DNA of 64,000 nucleotides, from positions 63,039,754 to 63,103,753 of the forward strand of contig NC_069372.1 of NCBI RefSeq assembly GCF_021730395.1, written 5' to 3'. Shown here one piece after another: positions 4,253 to 53,290 of the stretch. Position 1 is the stretch's first letter. Every line of letters begins with the position of its first letter. Origin of the DNA: Mercenaria mercenaria (lineage: Eukaryota). A program made the translations under genes and the position numbers. The notes beneath the pieces are model-generated. The model made no database searches and was not told the origin of the DNA. It saw only the letters and a list, made by a program, of their open reading frames with translations.

Positions 4253-4499
4253 GTAATTTGGGGTACCAAGAGGTATTAGAATTTTCCTTCATTAAAACTT
4301 GAATCATTTAAAGGGGCTCTTGGTACATTTTTCTTTTATTAGTTTTTTTTTTTGCCCTTCCTTAAGGTCCTTAATTTTTTTCAAGTTTTTTAGAGGTCCA
4401 GGCCTCCAAGGTTTTAAAAATATTATCAGTTATAGTGTGGTTAAGTGTGAAATAAAGCAGGTGGACACCAATATGAAGATAAGTCAGTTCAGTTATGTG

Positions 4500-7128: not shown

Positions 7129-8308
7129 TTTTAGCTCGACTATTCATAGAATAGTAAAGCTATTGGACTTGCCCATGCGTTGGCGTCCGCATCGGCGTCC
7201 TGATTTGGTTAAATTTTTGTATGTAAGCTGGTATCTCAGTAACCGCTAGTGGGAATTGATTGAAACTTCACACTCTTTTTCACTGTGATAAAATGACTTA
7301 CATTGCACAGGTTCCATAACTCTATTTTGCTTTTTTTCCAAAATTAAGCCCCATTTTCAACTTAGAAATTTTTGGTTAAAGTTTTGTATGTAAGCTGGTA
7401 TCTCAATATCCACTAATGGGAATGGATTGAAACTTCATACACTTGTTCACTGACATAATCTGACATGTACTGTGCAGGTCCCATAACTCTGCTTTGTATT
7501 TTACAAAATTATGCCCCTTTTTCGACTTAGCTGTTTTTGGTTAAGTTTTTATATGTAAGCTGGTATCTCGGTATCCACAAATGAGAATGGATTGAAACTT
7601 CACACACTTGTTCACTGTCATGATATGACATGCAGAGCAAAGGTTCAATAACTCTACTTGGCATTATGATGCCCCTTTTTAGCTCACATGTCACAAAGTG
7701 GCACGGTGAGCTTTTGTGATCGCGCAGTGTCCATCAGCCATCCGTGTGTCCGTAAACTTTTGTTTGTGACCACTCTAGGGGTCACATTTTTCATGGGATC
7801 TTATGAAAGTTGGTCAGAATGTTTATCTTGATGATATCTAGGTCAAGTTCGAAACTGGGTCACGTGCAGTCCAAAACTAGGTCAGTAGGTTTAAAAATAG
7901 AAAAACCTTGTGACCTCTCTAGAGGCCATACTTTTCAATGGATCTTCATGAAAGTTAGTCAGAATGTTTACCTTGATGATATCTAGGTCAATTTTGAAAC
8001 TGGGTCACGTGCTTCAAAAACTAGGTCAGTAGGTCAAATAATAAAAAAATCTTGTGACCTCTCTAGAGGCCATACTTTTGAATTGATCTTCATGAAAATT
8101 GGTCAGACTGTTCACCTTGATGATATCTAGGTCAAGTTCGAAATTGGGTCACATGCTATCAATAACTAGGTCAATAGGTCAAATAATAAAAAAACCTTGT
8201 GACCTCTCTAGAGGCCATATTTTTCATGGGATCTGTATGAAAGTTGGTCTGAAAATTCATCTTGATGATATATAGGCAAGCGTTGCTGTCCTCCGACAGC
8301 TCTTGTTT
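7129..8308 (-). mobile_element. Composite satellite-carrying element. An A-i-type element (GC-rich tail, ~3 monomers of ~180 bp, terminal hairpin module at 8276-8308) is interrupted by a B-type element.
   Basis: It starts ttagctcgactattcatagaatag...gcgttggcgtccgcatcggcgtcc, the reverse complement of the GACGCC tail. Monomers read ggttaaagttttgtatgtaagctggtatctc...ttatgcccctttttcgacttag. It ends gcgttgctgtcctccgacagctcttgttt, the 5' hairpin module in reverse complement. Confidence 0.7.
7679..8275 (-). mobile_element. B-type element nested in the A-i element: 3' terminus (reverse complement) plus ~3.3 monomers of ~165 bp
   Basis: tttagctcacatgtcacaaagtggcacggtgagcttttgtgatcgcgc is the reverse complement of the B 3' end gatcacaaaagctcaccttgtcactttgtgacaggtgagctaaaa seen at 49150-49210. 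Its monomers are reverse complements of those at 27900-29000. It is inserted after a T-run (gccccttttt|agctcac). Confidence 0.65.
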
Positions 8309-9169
8309 AAAATGTAATACTGATTCCTACCTTGGTGATAATTCTGTTGTGTGTTTTGCCCTTGTTTTCGTATTTTTTTGTTAAGTGTATACATAGGCTG
8401 GTTCCTTTCAATTGGAGTTTGGTGTATATTGTTCATTTTGAAATTTGTGTGTCAGCTTTGTTGTTGTCATTAATTTTCTGGTGATGGTGGTTTTAAATAA
8501 CATACAAATATTTAAAGTTTGCTCACTGTCTGATATACTTTTAAATTGACTCTTGTCAAATGATTTACAACTTTAAATATACTTTAAAACAAGATGTTAA
8601 GACGTATTTAATTGATTAACATTTTCGTTAATTTCTTGCTGATATGTCTAAATACTTTTTTTGTTGCCTTTTTCTTCTATTTTTCTTCTCAGTTCTATGT
8701 ATTCTTTGTTTGCTTGCAGTATGATCCACTTGTTAAATACAGTTCTTGGAGATCATATTGTAATTAAGATTGTTGTTGTCTTAATATGTAATCTATTATT
8801 GTTATTATTATTAGACGTAAAGGAAGAACTGTTTTGGACCTGAAGCACATGAGGTTCAGGAAGAACATGTTACATCACTTATCAGCAATCATGGACAGAA
8901 TAAAGTTGACAGATTCCACAAGCACTGAAGTTTAGGTATGCATATAAGTCTTTCTTTCCCAAAATTTTCTTTCAAGATACCGATATTTCAGCAGACTGAA
9001 GATGTAGATGAAGAATTACTACGGGATTTTACTTACAAAGTTAATTTTGAAGTAATAAATATTACAGTATCCAGTTTAACATTGTTAATAACACCCATTT
9101 GTTATTATTTTTTATGAATGTGTACTCTGTAATATTTTCTAAATTCTAAATATTTCAGAGAAATGTTGA

Positions 9170-27782: not shown

Positions 27783-29091
27783 AACAAGACCATGATGGTC
27801 CTGAATCGCTCACCTGTCCCAACATGACCCAGTTTTGAACTGAGTATGACGTTCTCTTTTCTATTAATTGACAAAGTGACCTAGTTTTTGAGCTCATGTG
27901 ATCCAGTTTTGAACTTGACCTAGATATCAGCAAGATAAAACTTCTGACCAATTTTCATGAAGATACATTGAAAAATATGACCTCTGGAGTGGTCACAAGG
28001 TTTTTCTATTATTTGACCTAATGACCTAGTTTTTGAAGGCACGTGATCCAGTTACGAACTTGACCTAGATATCATCAAGGTGAACATTCTCACCAATTTT
28101 CATGAAGATCTCATGAAAGTACAGTCTCTAGAGAGGTCACAAGGTTTTTTTATTTTTAGACCTACTGACCTACTTTTTGACCGCACATATGACCCAGTTT
28201 CAAATCTAGATATTTTCAAGATGAACATTCAGATCAATTTTTATACTGATCCCATGAAAAATATGGCCTCTAGAGAGGTCAAAATGTTTCTCTATTTTTA
28301 CACCTACTGACCTAGCTTTTGACTGCACATAACCCGGTTTTGTACTTTACCTAGATATCATCAAGGTGAACATTCTCATCAATTTTCATGATGATCCATT
28401 GAAAAATATGGCCACAGGGAGGTCACAAGGATTTTCTATTTTTAGACCTACTGACCTAGTTTTGCACCGCATGCAACCCAGTTTCAAACTTGACCTAGAT
28501 ATCATCAAGGTGAACTTTCTGACCAATTTTCATGAAAATCCCATGAAAACTATGGCCTCTAGGAAGATCACAAAGTTTTTCTATTTTTAGACCTACTGAC
28601 CTAGTTTTCGATCGCACATGACCCAGTTTCAAACTTGACCTAGATATCATCAATGTAAACATTCTGATCTATTTTCATGAAGATCTCATGAAAATTATGG
28701 CCTGTAGAGAGGTCAAAGAGGTATTTTTAGACTTACTGACCTAGTTTTTTGACCGCACGTGACCAAGTTTCAAAGCTGACCTAGATATCATCAAGGTGAA
28801 CATTCTGACCAATTTTCATGAAGATCCATTGAAAAATATGCCCTCTAGGGAGGTTACAAGGTTTTTCTATTTTTAGACCTACTGATGTAGTTTGGAAGGC
28901 ACGGAACCCAGTTTCGAACTTGACCTAGATATCAACAAGATAAACCTTCTGACCAACTTTCATAAAGATCCCAAGAAAAATGTGACCTCTAGAGCGGTCA
29001 CAAGCAAAAGTTTACAGACGGACGGACACACGACAGACGCCGCGCGATCACAAAAGCTCACCTTGTCTCTTTGTAACTGGTGAGCTAAAAA
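27783..29091 (+). mobile_element. B-type satellite-carrying element (5' palindromic head, ~8 monomers of ~166 bp, (GACR)n, 3' hairpin, gagctaaaaa)
   Basis: The 5' end is aacaagaccatgatggtcctgaatcgctcacctgtccc. Monomers read gacctagatatcatcaaggtgaacattctgaccaattttcatgaagatc.catgaaaaatatggcctctagagaggtcacaaggtttttctatttttagacctactgacctagtttttgaccgcacatgacccagttt. The 3' end is gacggacggacacacgacagacgccgcgcgatcacaaaagctcaccttgtctctttgtaactggtgagctaaaaag. Confidence 0.75.
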
Positions 29092-30345: not shown

Positions 30346-30804
30346 AAGTGAAGGTGATATGTGGGTCAAAGTCATTTATGTATAGGTCAGTTTGAAGGTC
30401 TTGCCACAAGGAATGTTGAATGTGAGAATGAACTAAATCGGCTCATTATGTCCACTGTTGGCAATCTGGTTTGTATGGGCAGACAGTTCAATCGCTATAT
30501 GCTCAAGTTCATAAAAGCTTTTACTTCCGTAGCAACACCAACTTCTTCTAAATATTGTTCTCCCCCACTAAATCTGGATGTCGTCAAAACAGCAACCCGT
30601 TATCACTAAGCAGCGTTGACGTAAACTTTTGCCCCTTTCCTTTTGTTGTTCATATGAAATGAATGTCAAATTTTTCAATGGAAAAGAATAGGGCAAATGT
30701 AAATATTAATTTTCAACATTTTTTTTCTCTAGAAATAGCAAAATACAATTATTTTTTCAGTTATGAGTCACATATGTAAATAACAGAATTTGAAAGAAAA
30801 TGAA

Positions 30805-30900
30805 GCTTTTTCCCCTCTGCTTTTCTGAGGACTTGGGACCTCCAAATTTCCAGTCTGTCACTGTTCAGATTCACATACATTCACTTCTCATTAATATGAA
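30805..30900 (-). repeat. Dispersed repeat. It matches 14100-14230 (+) in reverse complement over about 45-90 bp.
   Basis: aaatttggaggtcccaagtcctcagaaaagcagagggg (reverse complement of 30810-30855) matches atctggaggtcccaagtcctcagaaaagcagaggg at 14178-14215. Confidence 0.5.
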
Positions 30901-31129: not shown

Positions 31130-31412
31130 CATTTGTTTGTTTTGGGTTTAACGCCGTTTTTCAACAGTATTTCAGTCATGTAACTGGGGGCAGTTAACCT
31201 AACCAGTGTTCCTGGATTCTGTACCAGTACAAACCTGTTCTCTGCAAGTAACTGCATACTTCCCCACATGAATCAGAGGTGGAGGACTAATGATTTCAGA
31301 CACAATGTCGTTTATCAAATAGTCACAGACAATGTACGCCCCACCCGAGGATCGAACTCGCGACCCCATGATCCGTAGACCGACGCTCTACCTACTGAGC
31401 TAACTTGGCTTA
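31130..31412 (-). mobile_element. tRNA-derived SINE (~285 bp): degenerate tRNA-Arg(ACG)-like head at 31337-31412, body, tail ...cggcgttaaacccaaaacaaacaaa
   Basis: The reverse complement of 31337-31412 is GCCAAGTTAGCTCAGTAGGTAGAGCGTCGGTCTACGGATCATGGGGTCGCGAGTTCGATCCTCGGGTGGGGCG. The D arm, anticodon loop CTACGGA and T loop GTTCGATCC are tRNA-like, but the acceptor and anticodon stems are broken. It is ~85% identical to the copy at 36326-36612. Confidence 0.65.
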
Positions 31413-35879: not shown

Positions 35880-37380
35880 ACAAATGTACATCAAAATGGT
35901 TAAATGCAATCTCTACGACATTAATAAGTACTCAAATACTAACCATCAGCTTGCCAATTTGAAGCTTTCTGTGTAAATTGGTAACATATACAAATCAAAA
36001 TATACACAAAATGGTTCAAAATATACACAAAATGGTATCTATACATTCTTTTCATACTTAAAAACGTATGTTAAAACATTAAAATGTACATATTCATATT
36101 TTAAAATGTGTGGTAAAACATTAAAATATACATAATACAAACTAGTACAAACCATCAACTTACCGTCGTTTATATGACTGAAATTGTTGAAAACACCCGA
36201 ACACACACATACATCAAGCTGAGGCTTTGTGTAAAAAGACAAAATAAAAAATTGCAACAGCATACATAAAACTAAAATAAAAAACAAAAATGGTATTCAT
36301 ACATTCAATTCATATTATAAAACACGTTTCGTTTTCGTTTTGGTTTTAACGCCGTTTTTCAACAGTATTTCAGTCATGTAATGGCAGGCAGTCAACCTAA
36401 CCAGTGTTCCTGGATTCTGTACCAGTACAAACCTGTTCTCCGCAAGTAAGTGCCAACTTCCCCACATGAATTATCAGAGGTGGAGGACTAATGATTTCAG
36501 ACACAATGTCGTTTACCAAATAGTCACGGAGAACATAAGCCCCGCCCGAGGATCGAACTCGCGACCCTGCGATATGTAGACCAACGCTCTTACCTACTGA
36601 GCTAAGCGGGCGGGCGTTAAAACAACAAAATATACATACCTGTAAAACAGTAGTACAAACCATCACCTTGCCTGTCTGAAGCCTATCTAAGCCATTTAGT
36701 TCGATACCTAGCTGAAAGAGAAAGGTATCTAAGAATTCTTCTGTCAGTGCAGAGTTCCCTATCCAAAAACAAAAACATACCCTTAAACCTGAATTATACA
36801 GACCTAAACCACAGCAAACCAAAAAAACGCACGTCCTGCCCTCGTTCACACAATAATTAAAATATATATATAGTATTTATACATCTATGTATATTTATAA
36901 AAAAAAAACACATCAAAATATACCTACTAGTAAGACAGCAAGTACACAAATACCGATCATCTGCATGCCCATTTCATGCTTTCTATGTAAAAAAAAAGAC
37001 AAAAAAATATATATATATATTATATGACAGCATACATAAAACAAAAATAAAAAACACCAAAAAAATGCTATCTTTACATTCTTTTCATATTATAAAACGC
37101 ATGTTAAAATACTACATTATACATATCTATAAAAAAAGAAGACACACACAAACCATCAGCTTGCTAATGTAAACATAATCTGGAAGGTAAATCCCTCAGA
37201 AGCACCAAGCTTTCTGTGTAAAAAGATAAAATTAAAGACTATTGCAGCATACATAAAACAAACATAAAAACACAAAAATGGAATACTGATGTATTCATAT
37301 TTTAAAACAGGTATTTAAACATTTAATACATAAAAGCGAAAACACACATACCAACCATCAGCTTTCCGAACTTAAAGCTT
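35880..37380. repeat. Degenerate AT-rich ~250-300-bp repeats related to part of the downstream higher-order repeat
   Basis: A recurring ...accatcagcttgcc.a.tt.aagctttctgtgtaaaaag...aaaatggtat...cattcttttcata.t.taaaac..atgttaaaacattaaaat.tacata motif (~5 times). The SINE at 36326-36612 is inserted within it. Confidence 0.55.
36326..36612 (-). mobile_element. Second copy of the tRNA-derived SINE (tRNA-like head 36541-36612, tail cggcgttaaaaccaaaacgaaaacgaaac)
   Basis: Aligns to 31130-31412 over its full length. The head, in reverse complement, reads GCCCGCTTAGCTCAGTAGGTAAGAGCGTTGGTCTACATATCGCAGGGTCGCGAGTTCGATCCTCGGGCGGGGC. Confidence 0.65.
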
Positions 37381-40300
37381 TCTGTGTAAAAAGTAAGTGT
37401 CTATTACCATTAGGGCAGTGTTAGCTGTGGCATCCAACACCTGTGTTATTAATCTGTTGCAGTTAACATGCAACCTAAAAAACAGTAACACAAAAACATG
37501 GTAAAATTTACAAAAATGTGTAATTATATCATAATTAAAACACAGACTAATCTGATTCACAGCTTCATTTGTCTGAAAATAAATCATCGGATGCCCCACC
37601 ACTGAACAAAAACAATCAGCTCTCCCAATTGCAGATCCCTATAAAAAGAGAAAATAAATAGCTACATGACTTCAAATGCCTTTCCACAGGAGAGGCATTA
37701 TCCGCCTGCATACTTACATAACCTTATACTTGAGAGATCTTCCTTATCTACATAATTTAGTTCCCTATCTAGCTGAAAGAGAAAATGGCACCTAAGAATG
37801 GCTCTGCAATTGCAGAGTTCCCTATCCAAAGGACCTCGGACGAAGGGTGATCACAAAAGCTCATCTTGTCAATATGTCGTCACCTCAACGCAACAAAGTT
37901 GTATCTTATTATAAATTTATAATAAGATAAGACCGTTGCGTTGAGGTGACGATGTGACAGGTGAGCTAATACTTATCCTAGGTTTCACATTTTGGGGGAA
38001 CAGCAAGAAAGAGGAATATTGAAATAACCAATAAAAAAACACCTACAACCGGAATTATAGAAATTAAGATGTACATAAATTACACTGTTAAAAGTTAAAA
38101 CTGCAATGTTTTATATATTATAATACCAGTTTTTATTAAATTGTCAGAGGATAAATGGTATATAAAAAATGTGTCTATTACCTTAATAAAATTGTCAGAG
38201 GATAAATGGTATATAAAAAATGTGTCTATTACCTTTAGAGCAGTGTCAGATGTGGCATCCAACACCTGTGTTATTAATCTGTTGCAGTTAACATGCAACC
38301 TAAAAAACAGTAACACAAAAACATGGTAAAATTTACAAAAATGTGTAATTATATCATAATTAAAACACAGACTAATCTGATTCACAGCTTCATTTGTCTG
38401 AAAATAAATCATCGGATGCCCCACCTCTGAACAAAAACAATCAGCTCTCCCAATTGCAAATCCCTCTAAAAAGAGAAAATAAAATGCTATATGACACAAA
38501 CATAAAAATATTGGCATAAAAACATTATCTCTGTAATTCCGGTTGCAACAGACATAACTCAATTTTCATTCATAAAAAGAATTAAACACCCAGTAGCTTA
38601 AGAGATTTAGCTTGAACAATTTTCACTGTCCGCCAAAATGTGAGCCTGTCCAAAGTAATGTCCTCATCCTCTTTCACAACTTGCAATTACTTACTGTTCT
38701 TGACACCGCCCATTTGATTCTAAAGACCAGTTATATTATTTTTTAGCAGGCTTCAAATGCCTTTCCACAGGAGAGGCATTATCCGCCTGCATACTTACAT
38801 AACCTTATACTTGAGAGATCTTCCCTATCTACATAATTTAGTTCCCTATCTAGCTGAAAGAGAAAAGGGCACCTAAGAATGGCTCTGCAATTGCAGAGTT
38901 CCCTATCCAAAGGACCTCGGACGAAGGGTGATCACAAAAGCTCATCTTGTCAATATGTCGTCACCTCAACGCAACAAAGTTGTATCTTATTATAAATTTA
39001 TAATAAGATAAGACCGTTGCGTTGAGGTGACGATGTGACAGGTGAGCTAATACTTATCCTAGGTTTCCCATTTTGGAGGAACACCAAGAAAGAGGAATAT
39101 TGAAATAACCAATAAAAAAACACCTTCTACAACCTGAATTATAGATATTAAGATGTACATAAATTATACTGTTAAAAGTTAAAACTGCAATGTTTTATAT
39201 ATTATAATACCAGTTTTTATTAAATTGTCAGAGGATAAATGGTATATAAAAAATGTGTCTGTTACCTTTAGAGCAGTGTCAGATGTGGTATCCAACACCT
39301 GTGTTAGTAGTCTGTTGCAGTTAACATGCAACCTAAAAAACAGTAACACAAAAACATGGTAAAATTTACAAAAATGTGTAATTATATCATAATTAAAACA
39401 CAGACTAATCTGATTCACAGCTTCATTTATCTGAAAATAAATCATATGCCCCACCTCTGAACAAAAACAACCAGCTAGCTCTCCCAATTGCAGATCCCTC
39501 TAAAAAGAGAAAATAAAAAGCTATATGACACAAACATAAAAATATTGGCATAAAAACATTATCTCTGTAATTCCGGTTGCAAATGACATAACTCAATTTT
39601 CATTCACAAAAAGAATTAAACACCCAGTAGCTCAAGAGATTTAGCTTAAACAATTTTCACTGTCCGCCAAAATGTGAGCCTGTCCAATGTAATATCCTAA
39701 TCCTTTTTCACAACTTGCAATTACTTACTGCTCTTGACACCACCCATTTGATTCTAAAGACCAGTTATATTATTTTTTAGCAGGCTTCAAATGCCTTTCC
39801 ACAGGAGAGGCATTATCCGCCTGCATACTTACATAACCTTAATACTTTGAGAGATCTTCCCTATCTACACAATTTAGTTCCCTATCTAGCTGAAAGAGAA
39901 ATGGGCACCTAAGAGTGGCTCTGCAATTGCAGAGTTCCCTATCCGAAGGACCTCGGACGAAGGGTGATCACAAAAGCTCATCTTGTCAATATGTCGTCAC
40001 CTCAACGCAACAAAGTTGTATCTTATTATAAATTTACAATAAGATATGACCGTTGCGTTGAGGTGACGATGTGACAGGTGAGCTAATACTTATCCTAAGT
40101 TTCACATTTTGGGGGAACACCAAGAAAGAGGAATATTGAAATAACCAATAAAAAACACCTACAACCGAAATTATAGATATTAAGATGTACATAAATTATA
40201 CTGTTAAAAGTTAAAACTGCAATGTTTTATATATTATAATACCAGTTTTTATTAAATTGTCAAAGGATAAATGGTATATAAAAATGTGTATATTACTTTT

Positions 40301-43300
40301 AGAGCAGTGTCAGCTGTGGCATCCAACACCTGTGTTAGTAGTCTGTTTGCAATCAACATGCAACCTTAAAAGCAGTAACACAAAAACATGGTAAAATTTA
40401 CAAACATGTCTAATTATATCATACTTAAAACACAAACTATATTTGTTTGCTGAATTCACAGCAGCTGATTCACAACTTCCTTTGTCTGAAAAGAAATCAT
40501 CTGAATGTCCCACCTCTGAGCAAAAGCAAACCATCTCTAAACAAATTACCTACAAAAATACCTTCCAAAAATCCACCATAGCAATGGAAAAAACCGCGCG
40601 TCCCGCCCTCGTTCCCACAATGCCACCTACGCACGCAATTAAATCATAACGTATATAAAAATGGTATTTATTCATTTTATTCATGTTTTAAAACATGTCA
40701 TAACATTAAAATATGTACAAAACTTAAAACAAACTATCAGCTCTCCCAACTGCAGATCACTCTGAAAATAGAAAAAAAATCTATACACAAACATAAAAAT
40801 ATTGCAATAAAAACATTATCTCTGTAATTCCGGTTGCAAAAGACAACTCAATTTTCATTCAGAAAAAGACTAACACTCAGTAGCTTAGGAGATTTAGCTG
40901 AAACAATTTTCACTGTCCCTCAAAATGTGAGCCTGGCCGATGTAATGTCCTGATCCTCTTTCACAAGTTGCAATTACTTACTGTTCTTGATACCACCCAT
41001 TTGATTCTAAAGACCAGTTATATTATTTTTTTAGCAGACTTCGAATGGTTTTCCATAGGAGAGGCATCATCCAGCTGCATACTTAAGACTTCAAAAATTC
41101 TTTCCATAGAGTTACAGGCTACCAATGCCTTTCCATAGGAGATGCATTATCCGGCTGCAGAGTTACAGGCTACCAATGCCTTTCCAAAGGAGACGCATTA
41201 TCCGCCTGCATACTTACATAACCTTATACTTGAGAGATCTTCCCTATCTACACAATTTAGTTCCCTATCTAGCTGAAAGAGAAAAGGGCACCTAAGAATG
41301 GCTCTGCAATTGCAGAGTTCCCTATCCAAAGGACCTCGGACGAAGGGTGATCACAAAAGCTCATCTTGTCAATATGTCGTCACCTCAACGCAACAAAGTT
41401 GTATCTTATTATAAATTTATAATAAGATATGACCGTTGCGTTGAGGTGACGATGTGACAGGTGAGCTAAAACTTATCCTAGGTTTCACATCTTGGGGGAA
41501 CAGCACGAAAGAGGAATATTGAAATAACCAATAAAAAAACACCTTCTACAACCGGAATTATAGGTATTAAGATGTACATAAATTATACTGTTAAAAGTTA
41601 AAACTGCCATGTTTTATATATTATAATACCAGTTTTTATTAAATTGTCAGAGGATAAATGGTATATAAAAAATGCGTCTATAACCTTTAGAGCAGTGTCA
41701 GCTGTGGCATCCAACACTGCGTTAGTAGTCTGTTGCAGTCAACATGCAACCTAAAAAGAAAGAAGCAAACCATCTCCAAACAAAAACCAACTGCCTCCAA
41801 ACAAAAAACCTACAAAAATAAACACCTTCCAAAATTCCACCACAGCAATGGAAACAAGAGCTGTCTCCGTAGGATGACACATGCCCCCGATGGCACTTTG
41901 AATGAATAGTTATGGCCAATGTTAGAGTTTAGGACCTTTGACCTACGGACCTGGGTCTCGCGCGCGACACGTCGTCTTACTGTGGTACACATCCATGCCC
42001 AATATTTTTAAAATCCAAGCATGAATGACAAAGATATGGACTGGACACGCCCATCAATGCACTATGTTGAAATATGACCTTTAACGTCTAAGTGTGACCT
42101 TGACCTTTGAGCTACGGACCTGGGTCTTGCGCACGACACGTCGTCTTACTGTGGTACACATTTATGCCAAGTTATTTGAAAATCCATCCATGGATGACAA
42201 AGATATGGACCGGACACGAATGCACTATCATGAAAAATGACCTTTAACGTCCAAGTGTGACCTTGACCTTTGAGCTACGGACCTGGGTCTTGCACGCGAC
42301 ACGTCGTCTTACTGTGGTACACATTCATGCCAAGTTATTTGAAAATCCATCCATGGATGACAAAGATATGGACCGGACACGCCCAACTATCATGAAAAAT
42401 GACCTTTAACGTCTAAGTGTGACCTTGACCTTTGAGCTACGGACCTGGGTCTTTCGCGCGACACGTCGTCTTACTGTGGTACACATTCATGCAAAGTTAT
42501 TTGAAAATCCATCCATCGATGACAAAGATATGGACCGGACACGAAAATTGCGGACAGACTGACAGACCGACAGACTGACAGACGGTTCAAAAACTATATG
42601 CCTCCCTTCGGGGGCATAAAAACCCGCGCGTCCTGCCCTCATTCCCACAATGCCACCTACGCACGCAATTAAATCATAACGTATATAAAAAATGGTATTT
42701 ATTCAGATTTTAAAACATGTCAACATTAAAATATGTACAAAACAGAAAACAAACTATCAGCTCTCCCAATTGCAGATCCCTCTGAAAATAGAAAAAAAAA
42801 TCTATACAACACAAACATAAAAATATTGAAATAAAAACATTATCTCTGTAATTCCGGTTGCAAGACAACTCGGTTTTCATTCAGAAAAAGAATTTAACAC
42901 TCAGTAGCTAAGAGATTTAGCTTAAACAATTTTAATGGTATGTAAAAAATGTGTCTATTACCTTTACAGCAGTGTCAGCTGTGGCATCCAACACCTGTGT
43001 TAGTAGTCTGTTGCAGTCAACATGCAACCTAAAAAGCAGTAACACAAAAACATAGTAAAATTTAGAAACATGTCTAATTATATCATACTTAAAACACAAA
43101 CTAATCTATTTGTTTGCTGAATTCACAGGTTTCTTTGTCTTAAAAGAAATCATCCAAATGTCCCACCTCTGAACAAAAGCAATTAAACCATCTCCAAACA
43201 AAAAACCAACTGCCTCCAAACAAAAAACCTATAAAAATAAACACCTTCCGAAAATCAAACACAGCAATAGAAAAAACGCGCGTCCCGCCCTCGTTCCCAC

Positions 43301-46300
43301 AATGCCGCCTACGCACGCAATTAAATCATAACGTATATAAAAAATGGTATTTATTCATTTTATTCAGATTTTAAAACATGTCATAACATTAAAATATGTA
43401 CAAAACTGAAAACAAACTATCAGCTCTCCCAACTGCAGATCACTCTGAAAATAGAAGAAAAAAATCTATACGACACAAACATAAAAATATTGCAATAAAA
43501 AAATAATCTCTGTAATTCCGGTTGCAAAAGACAACTCAGTTTTCATTCAGAAAAAGAATTTAACACCCAGTAGCATAAGAGATTTAGCTTAAACAATTTT
43601 CACTGTCCCTCAAAATGTGAGCCTGGCCAATGTAATGCCCTGATCCTCTTTCACAACTTGCAATTACTTACTGTTCTTGATTCCACCCATTTGATTCTAA
43701 AGACCAGTTATATTATTTTTTAGCAGACTTCAAATGCTTTCCATAGGAGTGGCATTATCCGGCTGTATACTTAAGGCTTCAAATGCCTTTCAATATGAGA
43801 GGCATTATCCGGCTACACAGTTACAGGCTTCAAAAGCCTTTCCATAGGAGATGCATTATCCGGCTGCATAGTTACAGGCTTGCTTCAAATGCCTTTCCAA
43901 AGGAGACGCATTATCCGGCTGCATACTTACATAACCTTATACTTGAGAGATCTTCCCTATCTACAAAATTTAGTTCCCTATCTAGCTGAAAGAGAAATGG
44001 GCACCTAAGAATGGCTCTGCAATTGCAGAGTTCCCTATCCAAAGGACCTCGGACAAAGGGTGATCACAAAAGCTCATCTTGTCAATATGTCGTCACCTCA
44101 ACGCAACAAAGTTGTATCTTATTATAAATTTATAGTAAGATATGACCGTTGCGTTGAGGCGACGATGTGACAGGTGAGCTAATAATTATCCTAGGTTTCA
44201 CATTTTGGGGGAACACCAAGAAAGAGGAATATAGAAATAACCAATAAAAAAACACCTTCTACAACCGGAATTATAGATATTAAGATGTACATAAATTATA
44301 CTGTCAAAAGTTAGAACTGCAATGTTTTATATATTATAATACCAGTTTTTATTAAATTGTCAGAGGATAAATGGTATATAAAAAATATGTCTATTACCTT
44401 TATAGCACTGTCAGCTGTGGCATCCAACACCTGTGTTAGTGGTCTGTTGCAGTCAACATGCAACCTAAAAAGAACAGAAGCAAACCATCTCCAAACAAAA
44501 ACCAACTGTCTCCGAAAAAATAATCTACAAAAATAAACACCTTCCAAAATTCCACCACAGCAATGGAAAAAAAAACGCGCGTCCCGCCCTCGTTTTCACA
44601 ATGCCGCCTTCGCACGCAATTAAATCATAACATATATAAAAAAAATGGTATTTATTCAGATTTTAAAACATGTCATAACATTAAAATATGAACAAAACAG
44701 AAAACAAACTATCAGCTCTCCTAATTGCACAACCCTCTGAAAATAGAAAAAAAATCTATACAACACAAACATAAAAATATTGCAATAAAAACATTATCTC
44801 TGTAATTCCGGTTGCAAAAGACAACTCGGTTTTCATTCAGAAAAAGAATTTAACACTCAGTAGCTAAGAGATTTAGCTTAAACAATTTTAATGGTATGTA
44901 AAAATGTGTCTATTACCTTTACAGCAGTGTCAGTATTTGTTTGCTGAATTCACAGCTTCCTTTGTCTTAAAAGAAATCATCCAAATGTCCCACCTCTGAA
45001 CAAAAGGTATTAAACCATCTCCAAACAAAAACCAACTGCCTCCAAACAAAAAACCTACAAAAATAAACACCTTCCGAAAATCAAACACAGCAGTAGAAAA
45101 AAAAACGCGCGTCCCGCCCTCGTTCCCACAATGCCGCCTTCGCACGCAATTAAATCATAAATATAAAAAAAAATGGTATTTATTCAGATTTTAAAACATG
45201 TCATAACATTAAAATATGACAACGAAAACAAACTATCAGCTCTCTAATTGCACAACCCTCTGAAATAGAAAAAAAATCTATACAACACAAACATAAAAAT
45301 TTGCAATAAAAACATTATCTCTGTAATTCCGGTTGCAAAGACAACTCGGTTTTCATTCAGAAAAAGAATTAACACTCAGTAGCTAAGAGATTTAGCTTAA
45401 ACAATTTTAATGTAGTAAAAATGTGTCTATTACCTTTACAGCAGGTCAGTATTTGTTTGCTGAATTCACAGCTTCCTTTGTCTTAAAAAAATCATCCAAA
45501 TGTCCCACCCTGAACAAAAGGTATTAAACCATCCCAAACAAAAACCAACTGCTCCAAACAAAAAACCTACAAAAATAAACCTCGAAAATCAAACACAGCA
45601 GTAGAAAAAAAAACGCGCGTCCCGCCCTCGTTCCCACAATGCCGCCTAGCACGCAATTAAATCATAACGTATATAAAAAATGGTATTTATTCATTTTATT
45701 CAGATTTTAAAACATGTCATAACATTAAAATATGTACAAAACTGAAAACAAACTATCAGGTCTCCCAACTGCAGATCACTCTGAAAACAGAAAAAAATAT
45801 CTATACGACACGAACATAAAAATATTGCAATAAAAACATTATCTCTGTAATTCCGGTTGCAAAAGACAACTCAATTTTCATTCAGAAAAAGAATTTAACA
45901 CTCAGTTGCTTAAGAGAATTAGCTTAAACAATTTTCACTGTCCCTCAAAATGTGAGCCTGGCCGATGTAATGTCCTGATCCTCTTTCACAACTTGCAATT
46001 ACTTACTGTTCTTGATACCACCCATTTGACTCTAAAGACCAGTTATATTATTTTTTAGCAGACTTCGAATGCTTTCCATAGGAGAGGCATTATCAGCTGC
46101 ATACTTACATACTTCAAATGCTTTCCATAGGAGTGGCATTATCCGGCTGTATACTTAAGGCTTCAAATGCCTTTCAATATGAGAGGCATTATCCGGCTGC
46201 ATAGTTACAGGCTTCAAATGCCTTTCCAAAGGAGACGCATTATCCGGCTGCATACTTACACAACCTTATACTTGAGAGATCTTCCCTATCTAGCTGAAAG

Positions 46301-47467
46301 AGAAATGGGCACCTAAGAATGGCTCTGCAATTGCAGAGTTCCCTATCCAGAGGACCTCGGACGAAGGGTGATCACAAAAGCTCATCTTGTCAATATGTCT
46401 TCACCTCAACGCAACAAAGTTGTATCTTATTATAAATTTATAGTAAGATATGACCGTTGCGTTGAGGTGACGATGTGACAGGTGAGCTAATACTTATCCT
46501 AGGTTTCACATTTTGGGGGAACACCAAGAAAGAGGAATATTGAAATAACCAATAAAAAAACACCTTCTACAACCGAAATTATAGATATTAAGATGTACAT
46601 AAATTATACTGTTAAAAGTTAAAATTGCAATGTTTTATTATTATAATACCAGTTTTTATTAAATTGTCAGAGGATAAATGGTATGTAAAAATGTGTCTAT
46701 TACCTTTAGAGCAGTGTCAGCTGTGGCATCCAACACCTCTGTTAGTGGTCTGTTGCAGTCAACATGCAACCTAAAAAGAACAGAAGCAAACCATCTCCAA
46801 ACAAAAACCAACTGCCTCCGAACAAATAACCTACAAAAATAAACACCTTCCAAAATTCCACCACAGCAATGGAAAAAACCCGCGCGTCCCGCCCTCCTTC
46901 CCACAATGCCACCTACGCACGCAATTAAATCGTAACATATATATTAAAAAAAAGGTATTTATTCAGATTTTAAAACATGTCATAACATTAAAATATGTAC
47001 AAAACATAAAACAATCTATCAGCTCTCCCAACTGCAGAACCCTCTGAAAATAGAAAAAAAAAATCTATACAACACAAACATAAAAATATTGCAATAAAAA
47101 CATTATCTCTGTAATTCCGGTTGCAAAAGACAACTCAGTTTTCATTCAGAAAAAGAATTTAACACTCAGTAGCTAAGAGATTTAGCTTAAACAATTTTAA
47201 TGGTATGTAAAAAATGTGTCTATTACCTTTAGAGCAGTTTCAGCTGTGGCATCCAACACCTGTGTTAGTAGTCTGTTGCAGTCAACATGCAACCTAAAAA
47301 GCAGTAACACAAAAACATGACGTCTAATTATATCATACCTAAAACACAAACTAATCTATCTGTTTGCTGAATTCACAGCAGCAAATTCCCAGCTCCTTTG
47401 TCTGGAAAGAAATCATCCAAATGTCCCACCTCTGAACAAAAACAAACCATCTCCAAACAAACCTATA
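37380..47467 (+). repeat. Higher-order repeat array (basic period ~1.03-1.08 kb, later units expanded by insertions and local duplications), ~8 units. Each unit contains a captured B-type 3' terminus with a 78-bp palindromic insertion.
   Basis: The landmark gggtgatcacaaaagctcatcttgtcaatatg[tcgtcacctcaacgcaac...gttgcgttgaggtgacga]tgtgacaggtgagctaatac recurs at 37850, 38925, 39955, 41340, 44050 and 46365. A second landmark ttaaaactgcaatgttttatatattataataccagtttttattaaattgtcagaggataaatggtat recurs at 38095, 39180, 40200, 41590, 44295 and 46620. Three alternative segments follow the second landmark in different units. There is a 4x ~48-bp sub-array at 43720-43940. Confidence 0.8.
41855..42622 (+). 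mobile_element. C-family element nested in the higher-order repeat (5' head caagagctgtctccgtagg, ~4 monomers of ~140 bp, (GACAGAC)n, hairpin, ataaaaa)
   Basis: Host sequence ccacagcaatggaaa|...|aaacccgcgcgtcc, whereas uninterrupted units read ccacagcaatggaaaaaaaaacgcgcgtcc (44545-44585). The tail is gacagactgacagaccgacagactgacagacggttcaaaaactatatgcctcccttcgggggcataaaaa. Confidence 0.8.
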
Positions 47468-49210
47468 ACAAGAGGACCATGATGGTCCTGAATCGCTCAC
47501 CTCTTCCCACATGACCCAGTTTCGAGTATGACGTCATTTTTTCTATTATTTGACACAGTGACCTAGTTTTTGAGCTCATGTGACCCAGTTTTGAACTTGA
47601 CCTAGATATTATCAAGATAAAAATTCTGACCAATTTTCATGAAGATCCATTGAAAAATATGGTCTCTAGAGAGGTCACAAGGTTTTTCTATTATTTGACC
47701 TAGTTTTCGAAGGTACGTGACCCTGTTTTGAATTTTATCCAGATCATCAAGGTGAACATTCTCACTAATTTTTATGAAGATCTCATGAAAAATATGGCCT
47801 CTAGAGAGGTCACAACGTTTTTCTATTTTTATACCTACTGACCTAGTTTTTGACCACACGTGACGTGACCCAGTTTCGAAACTGACCTAGATATCATCAA
47901 GGTGAACATTCAGATCAATTTTCATGAAGATCCATTGAAAAATAGGGCCTCTAGAGAGGTCAAAAGATTTTAATAATTTTTGACCTACTGACCTAGTTTT
48001 TGACCACAGTTGACCCAGTTTCAAATTTGACCTAGATATCATCAAGAACATTCAGACCAACTTCCATACAGATCCCATGAAAAGTATGGCCTCTAGAGAG
48101 GTCACAAGTTTTTTTTATTATTTGACCTACTGACCTAGTTTTTTAGGGCACGTGACCCAGTTTCAAACCTGACCTAGATATCATCAAGGTTAACATTCTG
48201 ACCAATTTTTATGGAGATCCATTCACAAGTATGGCTTCTAGAGAGGTCACAAGGTTTTTCTATTTTTAGACCTACTGACCTAGTTTTTGACCGCACATGA
48301 CCCTGTTTCGAACTTGACCTAGATATCATCAAGATGAACATTCAGACCAATTTTCATACAGATCCCATGAAAAATATGGCCTCTAGAGAGGTCACAAGGT
48401 TTTTATATTATTTGACCTACTGACCTAGTTTTTGAAGGCACGTGACCCACTTTCGAATTTGACCTAGATATCATCAAGGTAAACATTCAGACCAACTTTC
48501 ATGAAGATCTCATGAAATATATGGCCTCTAGAGAGGTCACAAGGTTTTTCTATTTTTAGACCTACTGATCTAGTTTTTGACCGCATGTGACCGAGTTTCG
48601 AACTTGACCTAGAAATCATCAAGATGAACATTCAGACCAACTTTCATACAGATCCCCTGAAAAATATGACCTTTAGAGAGGTCACAAGGTTTTTCTATTA
48701 TTTGACCTACTGACCTAGTTTTTGATGGCACGTGACCCAGTTTCGAACTTGACCTAGAAATCAACAAAGTGAAAGTTCTGACCAATTTTCATGAAGATCT
48801 TGTGCAATATATGGCCTCTAGAGAGGTCACAAGGTTTTTCTATTTTTAAACCTACTGACCTAGTTTTTGATGACACGTGACCCAGTTTCGAACTTGACCT
48901 AGATATCATCAAGGTGAACATTCTGACCAATTTTCATGAAGATCTTGTGAAATATATGGCCTCTAGAGAGGTCACAAGGTTTTTCTATTTTTAGACCTAC
49001 TGATCTAGTTTTTGACGGCACGTGACCCAGTTTCGAACTTGACCTAGATATCATCAAGATGAACATTCTGACCAACTTTCATAAAGATCCCATGAAAAAT
49101 GTGACCTCTAGAGTGGTCACAAGCAAAAGTTTACGGACGCACGCACGCACGACGGACACCGCGCGATCACAAAAGCTCACCTTGTCACTTTGTGACAGGT
49201 GAGCTAAAAA
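47468..49210 (+). mobile_element. B-type satellite-carrying element (~10 monomers of ~166 bp) inserted into the last higher-order repeat unit
   Basis: The 5' end is acaagaggaccatgatggtcctgaatcgctcacctcttccc, with a 17-bp perfect palindrome aggaccatgatggtcct. The 3' end is gacggacaccgcgcgatcacaaaagctcaccttgtcactttgtgacaggtgagctaaaaa. Host sequence resumes at 49211 ccaaccactcccaacaaaaaccaactgcctccgaacaaa. Confidence 0.8.
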
Positions 49211-49548
49211 CCAACCACTCCCAACAAAAACCAACTGCCTCCGAACAAATTAACTACAAAAAATTTGAAACTGAAGGTTTAAAATGGTGCAATCTGGTGT
49301 ATTTTGGGGTGTTTTTTCTTTACTTTGTCTACCTATATTTTTGTATACAATAAAGACATAAAAACATAATTCCTCTTAAAAATGCATTTGTGACATCACA
49401 TAACAAGAGTGTCAGAATGTCACAATATACGCCCGTCACAGCAAATTTCTTTACACTAGCACCTGTATTTGCAAATGGAATTTTAATTTTCTAGTTGTTT
49501 ACAATGTTGTTTTTTTTTTAAGAAATTATTGTAATTCTTTTATTTTTC

Positions 49549-51160: not shown

Positions 51161-52419
51161 TGTTTCCCTGTAACAATTGAGCCATTAAAAAAGGCAATCA
51201 TGAACATTTTGAGGTGTAGATCTATTGCTTCTAGGTCCGTATTTTTTGTTTCAAAAATATTTCTTTATTAATGATTGACCGTCTTTTGGGCAAGTGAGTA
51301 AGCTTTCAGAAAAATCATACTTCAAAGCCCAGATGCAGACTGTATACTTAAAAGCCCTGATGTAAACTGTTTACGTACAGCAAGTGAGCAACGGGGTACA
51401 AAACATTTATCGCAGTGCATCGTGCCAGTTAAAATAACGCTTCAAGCGGTCAGAACAGGCTGAATGGAAACTAAGAAGACTTAAAAATTAATTGATCAAT
51501 TCTACATAGTTACTTACAGGTTTGCTATTTAATTTTGCTTTCAATACAAAGCAAAGATAGCGGAAATGTCCTGTATGGAAAAAGTATGCATTGGATGGGA
51601 TAAAGCAGGAAAACCCACCGGTGCCCGCTCATATTGGTCACAACCAGTTAAATAGTTTTCCCTATATATTCTATATAAAACTGACATTTTTTAAAGAGCT
51701 TCCAAACAGCTAGACCCATTTCAGAGAACAAATCCTTACCTCATTTTAAAGAGTTATGATAAAACTGATATAAAATGAAGAGAAAAGTAGGGGTCATGTA
51801 TCTTCTAAGAGAGATTTCTCTGGTCACATTTGCTTACTATAAACTGGCATCAAAATCACACTGCTGTGACCTGGAAGTACTACTCATACTACAACTGAGA
51901 ATCACTTCACCAAATACAACCTGCTCTCACATTTTTCCTACCAAAATGTCACAAATACATCCACAATGAAATTTAAACAGGAACTAGCTTTAATTTAGAC
52001 CTCTGTTGCCATGCCAAGTGAAAAATTAGTGTTCAAATACCTGGCAGCCATTACGTGACTAGACCAGACGGTTCCTTTAGTATAGTTAGGCCTATTGCTA
52101 AACTATTCGTCAGTGCTCATCACGTGGTGAGACTGATTAAAAATAGATGCGCTAAGATCCTGCACAATTCACTGACTTGGAAAACCAACAACCACATGAC
52201 GTCAGCATACAAAAATAATGTTGTTTAACTGTTGGAATACACATGTAATGGTAGCGGTCAGTTAATGTTTTCATTCAACAATTAATTTCGGGTTATTATT
52301 TAATATTTTAAAGTTAATTTTTTGTTCAGTTTGAGGAAAGTAGCCGGTGGTACATCCATCAGTAGTCAGCGAAATTGCCCGCCGCCAGGGCTTGTGGAGA
52401 GCTTTGTTAACTCAAAGTC

Positions 52420-53290
52420 AATTTACTTCCCTATCTAGCTGAAAAAGAAAGGGACATCTAAGAATGGCTCTGTCAATGGAGTTCCCTATCCAAAAAAAAC
52501 AAACAAAAAACATACTAACTTACTAGTCCTAGGTTTCACATTTTAGGGGACAGCAAGAAAGAGGAATATTTGAAATAACTTATAAAAACACCTTCTACAA
52601 CCGGAAGTATAGGTATTATGATATACAAAACATGCGCGGATCCAGCCAATTTTCTCAGAAGGGGTCCCCCCCTCTCCCACCAACCATCTGGAAAATTTTG
52701 AAATTTAGCGCCTCATTTTCTGCATTCTGGTGCATTCTAGAAGCTTTTTTAAGATAACCTTTTCACTGCAATTCTATATACAATATACCCCTTATTTTCA
52801 GTTTTATGGGCTTACCTGTTAAATTTTGGGAAAATGATAAAATAAAGTTTTCTTGAAGGTAACATTCTTAGTTTCTCTTAGATAATTAATAAAAATATGA
52901 ATTATGTCTGGGTCGTATGTAGCAGTAGCCGCATATACTTTAAATGCGGTCCTAATGTTGTCTTTTTTTTCATATTTTCTTTCCAACTTGTCTTCTTTCC
53001 TTTTTTAATGATTTTCCAGAGGGGGTGCCGTCCCCTGGTCCCCCCCCACCTCTGGATCCGCGCATGCATAAATTACATATTGTTATTTCATACTACCTTT
53101 ACAGAACTACAATGTTTTATTCATTACAATACAGCTTATTTCAAATCGTCAGAGGACATATATGTATTCAATACCACTTTTGTAGAACTGCAATGCATTA
53201 CAATACCACTTTTTATCAAATCGTCAGAGGTCATATGTATCAAACGCTCATCCAAATGATCCGCATATCTGTGCTCTCCATATTGAGCTA
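52420..53290 (+). repeat. Diverged fragment of a higher-order repeat unit (lacking the terminal hairpin), interrupted by a MITE
   Basis: tagctgaaaaagaaagggacatctaagaatggctctgtc...cctaggtttcacattttagggg...caaccggaagtataggtatta before the MITE. aactgcaatg...ataccactttttatcaaatcgtcagagg after it. Confidence 0.55.
52638..53066. mobile_element. MITE-like element (~430 bp) with ~15-bp perfect TIRs (CATGCGCGGATCCAG), extending imperfectly to ~40 bp
   Basis: The left end is catgcgcggatccagccaattttctcagaaggggtccccccctc. The right end is gagggggtgccgtcccctggtccccccccacctctggatccgcgcatg. No ORF inside. It is inserted into a diverged higher-order repeat unit. Confidence 0.55.

Follow-up and report, generated by a model that had tools for sequence, protein, structure and literature searches.

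About 10 kb of the clam genome is an irregular tandem duplication with units of 0.8–2.7 kb. The block is probably a local, heterogeneous duplication of non-coding, repeat-derived DNA that carries a relic Helentron-type end, already present before amplification. It lies in a window of 64 kb (the whole stretch of DNA that was analysed), of which ~26% consists of HINE-type short arrays; in the bivalve literature such short arrays are dispersed rather than heterochromatic.

Extent and anatomy of the array

Dense self-similarity across 37387–47467 was reflected in 13,313 shared 12-mer pairs, compared with 11 in a shuffle. BLAST self-hits within the array had 86–98% identity and a dot plot returned the same blocks; together with tiling on a reference unit they revealed related units arranged head to tail (Table 1). 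The first-pass annotation had described ~10 kb of ~1.05-kb units. The array is real, but lengths close to 1 kb are confined to three of the six full units (827, 1033, and 1033 bp); the others measure 1386, 2713 (769-bp insert included; 1944 bp without the C element), and 2308 bp, and one partial unit follows. The commonest k-mer offsets were 1030, 2300, 5020, 2710, and 1080. The array looks like a heterogeneous tandem duplication of two unit types rather than a higher-order satellite with a regular 1.05-kb period. It is macrosatellite-like and is known from one locus with six to seven units.

Table 1. Coordinates of array units, element remnants, inserted elements, and array relatives in the window.
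Feature	Coordinates	Strand	Basis
Array main body, U1–U7 and C insertion	37387..47467	.	self-BLAST, dot plot, reference-unit tiling, k-mer offsets vs shuffle
Array last 55 bp (Y block), split off by B element	49211..49265	.	alignment
U1, short, 827 bp: P then R directly, without Q	37387..38213	.
U2, short, 1033 bp: P 38214–38495, Q 38496–38750, R 38751–39246	38214..39246	.
U3, short, 1033 bp: P, Q, R; 95.8% identity with U2	39247..40279	.
U4, long-type, 1386 bp: P', X, end of P and Q, 51-bp repeat x2.2, R	40280..41665	.
U5, long-type, 2713 bp: P(1–100), Y, (C), X/Q-half, P', X, Q, 51-bp repeat x4, R	41666..44378	.	self-BLAST, reference-unit tiling
U6, long-type, 2308 bp	44379..46686	.
U7, partial: P(1–100), Y, X, Q-half, P, Y	46687..47467	.	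self-BLAST, tiling, alignment
51-bp minisatellite, hairpin-bearing, Q/R junction, x4	43724..43931	.
Left-flank remnant (truncated HINE), U1	37831..37969	-	motif matches, alignments, fold
Left-flank remnant, U2	38912..39050	-
Left-flank remnant, U3	39948..40086	-
Left-flank remnant, U4	41331..41469	-
Left-flank remnant, U5	44044..44182	-
Left-flank remnant, U6	46352..46490	-
C element, complete HINE, in Y block at U4/U5 junction	41854..42622	-	empty paralogous sites
B element, complete HINE, in U7 Y block	47468..49210	-	repeats, motif, alignment
Degenerate ~200–290-bp repeats with motif M (ACAAACCATCAGCTTGCC..GAAGCTTTCTGTGTAAAAAG)	35925..37386	.
Degenerate R-block relative without hairpin	36681..36860	.	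E = 2.4e-10
R-block relative without hairpin ("empty site")	52395..53240	.	E = 1e-11 to 1e-14

The R blocks of the different units were 95.4–98.2% identical, and the closest pairs were U1/U2 and U5/U6, as local duplication would predict. Between short and long units, identity was 95–97% in R and in the first ~100 bp of P, ~89% in Q, and ~86% in the rest of P. Such unevenness is not what duplication of whole units in a single round would produce; it calls for gene conversion or for the alignment of older sub-repeats that are paralogous. U6 contained an internal sub-repeat of ~530 bp (44482–45408 versus 45012–45935, 92%), and sub-repeat identity (92.2% at offset 530) was about the same as long-unit identity (93.1% at offset 2343). 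The 51-bp minisatellite was also found four times at 46059–46260, 2.2 times at 41108–41218, and once in U1–U3; U1 additionally carried a 51-bp duplication at the R-tail/P junction (38138–38250). U7 had neither R block nor hairpin and was broken by the B element. The sequence following B aligned with the Y blocks of the U4/U5, U5/U6, and U6/U7 junctions and then diverged. The longest open reading frame in the array had no homolog in a protein search, and Rfam returned nothing at gathering score anywhere in the window.

Degenerate relatives upstream of the array, which the first-pass annotation had also reported, were recovered: motif M, which is related to the P-block end, occurred six times between 35925 and 37400, and an R-like piece lay at 36681–36767. 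The motif-M region was broken by a 273-bp interspersed repeat (36333–36605) with a second copy at 31136–31403. The SINE reported for the same region was not confirmed; ARAGORN and Rfam detected no tRNA-like gene in it, and only a B-box-like GTTCGATCC was visible, on the minus strand.

The terminal hairpin within the units

Each full unit contained one copy of GATCACAAAAGCTCAtCTTGTCA…TGACAGGTGAGCTAA. Outside the loop, this copy matched the terminal hairpin of the dispersed B element at 38 of 39 bases, and the two remained alignable on into the microsatellite. With zero mismatches GATCACAAAAGCTCA occurred at nine sites, namely six in the array (37849, 38930, 39966, 41349, 44062, and 46370) and three B-element ends (7721 on the reverse strand, 29046, and 49165), where chance would give ~0.24 sites even with two mismatches allowed; GTGACAGGTGAGCTAA had the same site pattern. 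The six array hairpins were all co-oriented, exactly one per full unit. The earlier claim that every unit embeds a B-type 3' terminus held for all six full units, though for six copies and not about ten, and the predicted relationship to B ends was borne out on alignment. The terminus is homologous to B ends but not identical to them, given an 82-nt palindrome in the array copies, and its polarity needed correction. In the rolling-circle orientation of pearl/DTC84/HINE elements, the hairpin is formed by the 5' subterminal inverted repeat and the complementary inverted repeat and constitutes the left flank, and the label "R" flank applies to it solely under the older names used for pearl (PMC3879986, PMC7492417, PMC4067079). 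In Helentron orientation the hairpin is the 5' end of B, not its 3' end.

The U1 remnant comprised a rest of ~18 nt of ACGG-type microsatellite, GATCACAAAA, the outer hairpin arms, the 82-nt nested palindrome, and the terminus GAGCTAA, and its DNA fold had an energy of -36.9 kcal/mol (z = -9.5). The nested palindrome stood in place of the 3–5-nt loop seen in eight of eight intact element ends examined, and among the sequences searched it was confined to the array copies. All six copies had the same truncation point and the same palindrome, which indicates that both predate amplification. The hairpin was somewhat less variable than the rest of R (5 of 121 versus 37 of 352 variable columns, Fisher p = 0.04), a possible sign of constraint.

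Within the array (37387–47467), neither a CGCTCACCT/AGGTGAGCG partner nor an ACAAGAG/CTCTTGT end was found other than those that belong to the C and B insertions. Core repeats were likewise absent from the units, which had no similarity to any 145–170-bp array by self-BLAST; as previously noted, no 145–170-bp monomers precede the hairpin in the units. With neither a second terminus nor core repeats, the array unit departs from the HINE/pearl plan.

The microsatellite remnant adjoins the R-block core, which is also present without a hairpin at 36681 and 52395. The relative at 52395–53240 reads CCTATCCAAA, 26 nt of A-rich sequence, and TACTAGTCCTAGG, with both hairpin flanks contiguous, and is split by a terminal-inverted-repeat MITE at ~52626–53068. 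Compared with this relative, the array units have an extra 139 bp, the right edge of which falls exactly at the element terminus (GAGCTAA/TACT). An edge at the exact terminus suggests that a truncated element end was present in one unit before amplification; insertion is preferred to deletion here on the evidence of just two relatives, both diverged and both from this window. The hairpin-less relatives, the exact GAGCTAA edge, and the shared truncation and palindrome agree with the first-pass proposal that a transposon end was built into a unit and then amplified.

The B and C elements

Judged by their sequence features, B and C are pearl/DTC84/HINE-type non-autonomous Helentrons. On the plus strand, B consisted of ACAAGAG with a GGACCATGATGGTCC palindrome and CGCTCACCT subterminal repeat, 11 core repeats of 145 bp, an ACGG-type microsatellite, the hairpin, and GAGCTAAAAA. 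The minus-strand sequence TTTTT-AGCTCACCTGTCAC-AAAG-GTGACAAGGTGAGCT contains the 5' subterminal inverted repeat, a few nucleotides in from the terminus, and after it the complementary inverted repeat. At the 3' end, AGGTGAGCG (8/9 complementary) was followed by GGACCATCATGGTCC and then TCTTGT, within 35 nt of the end, and the microsatellite stretch ACGGACGCACGCACGCACGACGGAC lay by the hairpin flank. The plus strand of C consisted of ACAAGAG with a stem-loop and GGGGGCAT-type subterminal repeat, 3.7 core repeats of 163 bp, a GACAGACT microsatellite, a hairpin (ATGCCTCCC/GGGGGCAT), and TAAAAA. B had the complementary subterminal pair AGCTCACCT/AGGTGAGCG; in C the pair was ATGCCCCC/GGGGGCAT. Besides core repeats and an ACGG/GTCY-type microsatellite, each element had a complementary inverted repeat and a 3' stem-loop with CTCTTGT after it, and both were inserted at AA/TT sites without a long target duplication and with A/T runs at the boundaries.

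These features match published descriptions and point to a HINE/pearl architecture (PMC3879986, PMC7492417, PMC4067079). With the bivalve pearl, DTC84, and Cg_HINE elements described there, B and C share the full plan: a flank of subterminal repeat and stem-loop, core repeats of 145–165 bp, the ACGG/GTCY-type microsatellite, a terminal hairpin, ends that carry an A/T run, and AA/TT insertion. The array units, in contrast, hold one terminal box and ~18 nt of microsatellite, without core, second flank, or matching subterminal repeat, and the nested palindrome of their boxes occurred in none of the eight intact ends.

Both elements were later insertions into the array, as had been claimed. C was inserted between A and A (T and T), and the empty paralogous sites ggaa/aaaaacgcgcg were found at ~44565 and ~46875. 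B was flanked by two Y-block halves, with Y resuming after the element. Further B copies were found in the window at 27783–29091 and 7676–8310 (reverse strand) and in three metagenome loci (L001, L004, and L005); the element copies at both window positions and at L001–L005 had unrelated flanks. At these five unrelated metagenome loci the terminal box always had a 3–5-nt loop, and the sequence past GAGCTAA differed each time, which establishes where the terminus lies. None of the five contained array sequence. The elements at L002 and L003 had the same terminal hairpin with unrelated core repeats, so the array hairpin cannot be traced to the 145-bp B family in particular as its donor.

Origin of the array

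We infer the order insertion, truncation, palindrome, amplification. A pearl/DTC84/HINE-type element would have inserted into an A-rich stretch of the ancestral unit before amplification and been truncated within its microsatellite, which would have left the terminal hairpin and ~18 nt of microsatellite. The 82-nt palindrome would next have arisen within the hairpin loop. The relic-carrying unit may then have been multiplied by ordinary unequal exchange or by replication-based duplication between pre-existing short repeats, giving rise to a short-unit subfamily (U1–U3) and a long-unit subfamily with extra sub-repeats (U4–U6). The C-type and B-type HINE insertions came last. No unit carries the other element end, and neither edge of the array (P start at 37387; Y block at 49265) lies at the hairpin or at element termini; the transposon end was thus most likely a passive passenger of ordinary tandem duplication.

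It is unlikely that the end caused the amplification, through a Helentron Rep that nicked the orphan 5' hairpin and, with no 3' stop, generated head-to-tail concatemers by one-ended rolling-circle replication or end-bypass. In its favour, each unit has exactly one hairpin, in a single orientation, the missing 3' end is the condition for read-through, and the hairpin varies slightly less than the sequence around it; an element at metagenome locus L002 has a head-to-tail neighbour, and tandem Helitron arrays with 3'-truncated inner copies appear in literature as cited in PMC7492417. However, what abuts the 5' terminus (TACTTATCCTAGG...) is the flank of the original insertion site, which recurs beside the empty site at 52521, rather than a truncated 3' portion of the copy before it. 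The array starts in a P block and ends in a Y block, not at the hairpin, and unit length and content vary by gain and loss of sub-repeats, a pattern typical of unequal exchange. The intact ends, with 3–5-nt loops in all eight cases, also contrast with the 82-nt spacer palindrome.

A function of the units on the minus strand, as repeated exon/intron cassettes of a gene or as an hpRNA/miRNA-like cluster that could feed small-RNA silencing of HINEs, with stems that carry HINE terminal sequence, is quite unlikely. By eye, several conserved pieces on that strand have polypyrimidine-AG and GT-like boundaries, the P-block reading frames are open in the same frame in five units, and the minus strand is T/G-rich over 36–48 kb. 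Yet the 155-aa open reading frame had no homolog among 5.8 billion proteins, Mercenaria RefSeq proteins included; the candidate mini-exons of 25, 26, 29, and 60 nt are not frame-consistent; the exon-like pieces vary like their surroundings (10.5–11.5% of columns); and the relative at 36681 has lost one donor site. As for a hairpin RNA, the ~112-nt hairpin is near-perfect (fold z = -9.5) and has weak structure-only matches to miRNA precursor models, but none of the Rfam families concerned (MIR4371, mir-4524, MIR8675, and mir-1303) passes, at 25–39 bits versus gathering scores of 68–110, and substitutions in the stem break pairs uncompensated. There is a slim prospect that the orphan hairpins are not passive, serving as rolling-circle origins that seeded and multiplied the array or as a transcribed hairpin-RNA cluster with small RNAs against the HINE terminal box. 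Under the former reading a transposon end would have given rise to a tandem repeat in which its own core repeats have no part. Under the latter reading the array would present six co-oriented ~112-nt hairpins, and the nested palindrome would be a stem-lengthening adaptation. It is very unlikely that the ~600-bp R+ block, which runs from the 51-bp repeat past the hairpin to the tail at ...GTTGCAGTTAACATGCAACCTAAAAA, spread as a young module, mobile or converting, into an older, more diverged array, in place of joint amplification of whole units. Short and long units are 95–97% identical in R+ and 86–89% in the flanking P and Q, and R+ ends in a short palindrome and CTAAAAA, beyond which they diverge, like local HINE ends with a hairpin and an A-run. 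Identity nevertheless falls gradually into Q with no sharp break, neither a target-site signature nor a second terminus was found for R+, and the R-like relatives at 36681 and 52395 lack its boundaries. It is implausible that six insertions occurred independently at one relative position, and gene conversion within a tandem array accounts for the pattern without mobility.

Several known systems resemble the array in part. Oyster satellitomes include TE-derived and TE-containing satellites, long composite monomers, and units of up to 8.6 kb (PMC11136912, PMC8268682, PMC12628747). Like them, the array has units of ~1 kb to several kb that consist partly of transposon fragments, set in TE-rich and probably largely euchromatin-like bivalve DNA. 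The Helitron-related monomers of oysters, however, are central core repeats (PMC11136912), whereas the array captured the terminal box and comprises one locus of six to seven heterogeneous units. Whole-Helitron and Helentron tandem arrays, as cited in PMC7492417, are likewise head to tail, with co-oriented 5' ends and without a 3' end. Unlike in those, the box flanks of the clam array are pre-insertion host or older-repeat sequence (the empty site at 52395), and its boundaries are not at element ends. In DINE-TR1/pvB370-type satellites of the Drosophila virilis group, the arrays expand the internal core repeats of the element, whereas the clam array amplifies flanking DNA and a relic terminus. 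Those satellites, as cited in PMC3879986 and PMC4067079, likewise link Helentron-type non-autonomous elements to tandem arrays.

The array is a tidy example of a known route of repeat growth and not a new kind of element, and current understanding is unchanged unless the hairpins prove active. Bivalve genomes are rich in Helentron-borne short arrays, the relation of which to true satellites is an active question. The locus shows that a terminal box, and not just core repeats, can end up within a tandem unit. The case is useful for annotation, since units of this sort will be wrongly labelled as ends of Helitrons or HINEs. With its clean, datable series of insertion, truncation, palindrome growth, tandem amplification, and new insertions, the locus may also serve to time the B and C families relative to one another and to the array.

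Organization of the array and its surroundings

A dense, genuine repeat at 37387-47467 emerged from self-BLAST, from a k-mer dot plot and from tiling along a reference unit, with 13,313 shared 12-mer pairs in the array versus 11 after shuffling. The array reported by the first-pass annotation was thus recovered, and its three alternative segments reflect block junctions of the types P→R, P→Q→R and P(1-100)→Y→X…. The regular period of ~1.05 kb that it gave was not borne out: measured from the start of one P block to the start of the next, units ranged from 827 to 2713 bp. The seventh unit was broken by the B element, after which the Y block picked up again for 55 bp and homology stopped. At the junction of Q and R, units U1-U6 carried 1, 1, 1, 2.2, 4 and 4 copies, respectively, of a 51-bp minisatellite with a hairpin.

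Coordinates of array units, inserted elements and related repeats in the window
Feature	Position	Length	Description
U1	37387-38213	827 bp	P then R, without Q
U2	38214-39246	1033 bp	P, Q, R
U3	39247-40279	1033 bp	P, Q, R
U4	40280-41665	1386 bp	Long type
U5	41666-44378	2713 bp	Long type, including 769-bp C element
U6	44379-46686	2308 bp	Long type, ~530-bp internal sub-repeat
U7	46687-47467	partial	Without R block
Array resumption	49211-49265	55 bp	Y block
C element	41854-42622 (-)	769 bp	Complete HINE inserted in array
B element	47468-49210 (-)		Complete HINE inserted in array
82-nt palindrome	37872-37953, equivalent positions in U2-U6	82 nt	In loop of transposon-end hairpin
Third B-type copy	7676-8310 (-)		B hairpin, 144-bp repeats
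Upstream R-block relative	36681-36767		Outside array
Downstream R-block relative	52395-52638		Outside array, hairpin-less
Further piece of downstream relative	53183-53237
MITE	52626-53068	~440 bp	Inserted in downstream relative
273-bp repeat	36333-36605; 31136-31403	273 bp	Two interspersed copies
Motif M	35925-37400		Six copies

R blocks were 95.4-98.2% identical, the closest pairs being U1/U2 and U5/U6, and the long units were ~92-96% alike with indels set aside. Between short and long units, R and the first ~100 bp of P were 95-97% identical, versus 86-89% for Q and the remainder of P. Windowed identity changed as a gradient without a sharp edge, a pattern most simply explained by conversion inside the array. 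R+, a ~600-bp block from the 51-bp repeat through the hairpin and tail, was rejected as a discrete element because this gradient gave no boundary. From 36000 to 48000, in the array and in the degenerate relatives upstream of it, strand asymmetry was strong, with A and C enriched on the plus strand (GC skew -0.14 to -0.24; AT skew +0.09 to +0.21).

No evidence of a coding or known-RNA function of the array was found. No homolog was found for the longest ORF of the array, 155 aa at 38095-38562 on the minus strand. On the minus strand, inspection by eye and three-frame reading found acceptor- and donor-like motifs flanking conserved pieces, with implied mini-exons of 25, 26, 29 and 60 nt; the exon-like parts of R varied as much as the rest. 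A coding reading of the units was rejected on the ORF without homolog, the inconsistent lengths set by the splice-like motifs and the unreduced variability. Rfam gave nothing at the gathering score; sub-threshold, structure-driven miRNA-precursor matches to the long hairpins were rejected as generic.

Upstream, motif M (ACAAACCATCAGCTTGCC..GAAGCTTTCTGTGTAAAAAG) recurred at ~200-290 bp spacing, and its copies were homologous to the end of the array P block. Each copy looked, on the minus strand, like a polypyrimidine-AG, a short segment and a GT, with segments of 25-60 nt that were not frame-consistent. The SINE annotated upstream of the array stood in so far as a 273-bp interspersed repeat (copies 90% identical) carries the B-box-like GTTCGATCC on its minus strand and may be a tRNA-derived SINE; a tRNA in it was not called by ARAGORN or Rfam. 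A sub-threshold match to a type-P3 twister ribozyme at 30786-30849 (minus strand; 25.8 bits versus a gathering score of 39.9, E = 0.2) is probably due to chance. A 151-aa ORF at 3824-4279, 94% identical to the uncharacterized Mercenaria mercenaria LOC123533427, adjoined a 34/68/102-bp minisatellite at 4553-6111; it served only for taxonomic placement and points to Mercenaria or a near relative as the source.

Helentron-type elements and the terminal box

The window is eukaryotic, with a GC content of ~35%, and about one quarter of it consists of short arrays of 145-170-bp repeats. These arrays sit in elements of a fixed plus-strand layout: ACAAGAG, a short stem-loop and a ~9-nt motif, then core repeats, an ACGG/GACA-type microsatellite, a hairpin and TAA(A)n. 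This is the layout of pearl/DTC84 elements, namely L flank, core repeats, ACGG microsatellite and R flank (PMC3879986), which were later recognised as non-autonomous Helentrons, or HINE (PMC7492417, PMC4067079). Oriented as a Helentron, such an element has its 5' end on the hairpin side, where a 5' subterminal inverted repeat and its complementary inverted repeat are followed by the microsatellite (PMC7492417, PMC4067079); the embedded hairpin, first annotated as a 3' terminus, is accordingly reassigned. Reversed, the ACAAGAG side forms the 3' end, with the 3' subterminal repeat, a stem-loop and ...CTCTTGT|T. Subterminal repeats were AGCTCACCT and AGGTGAGCG in the B element and ATGCCCCC and GGGGGCAT in the C element. 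The flank sequences of the window elements were not found in the C. gigas HINE supplements, and a full-text literature search for the element motifs returned nothing relevant. The third B-type copy carried the B hairpin but a different opposite flank (AACAAGAGCTGTCGGAGGACAGC…), common to other element families in the window, which suggests flank swapping between families.

That a transposon end is embedded in the units was upheld. GATCACAAAAGCTCA occurred without mismatch at nine sites, one in each of U1-U6 and three in B ends, and GTGACAGGTGAGCTAA followed the same pattern. The array copies were aligned with the three B ends and five ends from metagenome contigs (L001-L005). Outside the loop, array copies and intact ends matched at 38 of 39 positions, and alignability extended ~18 nt into the microsatellite (GGACCTCGGACGAAGGGT versus GGACGACGGACACTGCGC). 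All eight intact ends had a 3-5-nt loop, and sequence past GAGCTAA(A)n differed among them, which fixes the element terminus at that point.

Outside the window the terminal box was found in the five metagenome contigs, all of them ordinary HINE ends, and in none of the viral contigs. In L002 and L003 this box was joined to core repeats of unrelated sequence, so it marks more than the 145-bp B family and is a "cassette" end that elements share. At ~2373-2420 of L002 (minus strand, contig WLWI01036513.1), GAGCTAA of the HINE hairpin directly abutted CAAGAGACG…, apparently the first part of a second element; the two would then be a head-to-tail pair in an environmental contig.

Proposed capture, nested palindrome and later insertions

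With whole units as nhmmer queries, two relatives of the R-block core were found outside the array, the downstream one continuing in a further piece. In the downstream copy 26 A-rich nt lie between CCTATCCAAA and TACTAGTCCTAGGTTTCAC…, and array units read CCTATCCAAA | GGACCTCGG…hairpin…GAGCTAA | TACTTATCCTAGGTTTCAC…; the flanks of the hairpin are thus contiguous elsewhere. The extra 139 bp of the array units has one edge exactly at the canonical terminus and the other inside the microsatellite. This comparison supports its being the leftover that would be expected of an element inserted at an A-rich site (T-rich on the other strand) and later truncated. A MITE bounded by terminal inverted repeats of 14 bp (ATGCGCGGATCCAG … CTGGATCCGCGCAT) was inserted in the hairpin-less relative, and array tail sequence picked up directly after it.

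In the array copies the hairpin loop was replaced by an 82-nt near-perfect palindrome (ATATGTCGTCACCTCAACGCAAC…GTTGCGTTGAGGTGACGAT), apparently placed between the Ts of the original TTT loop. The expanded hairpin of ~112 nt has a DNA folding energy of -36.9 kcal/mol (z = -9.5). Relatives of the palindrome were absent elsewhere in the window, in L001-L005 and in viral contigs; five bacterial-genome matches were disregarded, as ~4 are expected by chance for a 19-mer in 596 Gb. Fold-back repair and a foldback insertion are candidate sources. Variable columns numbered 5/121 in the hairpin versus 37/352 in the rest of R (p = 0.04), and the existing stem substitutions break pairs rather than compensate. 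Because the truncation point and palindrome were common to all six array copies, both arose before the duplications. Together with the hairpin-less relative, this supports the central idea of the first-pass annotation, that an end was captured and then amplified.

The later insertions of C and B into the array were likewise substantiated. The C element lies between ggaa and aaacccgcgcg, the matching U5/6 and U6/7 junctions being uninterrupted, and the B element splits a Y block; both elements are therefore younger than the duplications by which those junctions formed. The B family includes young members, as its copy in L005 and the 49-kb copy were 96.6% identical.

Mode of amplification

Passive co-amplification of a truncated Helentron-type end is the most likely mechanism, and we consider it probable. 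Were the end instead the driver, the units would be rolling-circle concatemers. The DNA next to the 5' terminus is, however, an old insertion-site flank and not a truncated preceding copy, and the array runs from the start of a P block into a Y block, with no edge at the hairpin. Units also differ through gain and loss of sub-repeats. Neither a matching 3' subterminal repeat nor an ACAAGAG/CTCTTGT end was found on searching inside the units, which were rejected as complete elements on this ground. Unit content, insertion-site flank and array edges are thus better accounted for by unequal exchange or by replication-based duplication in tandem than by rolling-circle concatemers.

Oysters offer well-documented cases of tandem units with transposon fragments, some of these units several kb long, and the Helitron-related satellites among them corresponded to core repeats of the elements (PMC11136912); truncated inner copies have also been described in tandem Helitrons (PMC7492417). 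The clam locus differs from these in having a relic terminal box and nested palindrome inside non-element DNA, which makes it a new example and not a new kind. Overall, the earlier observation was confirmed in part and its interpretation partly supported.
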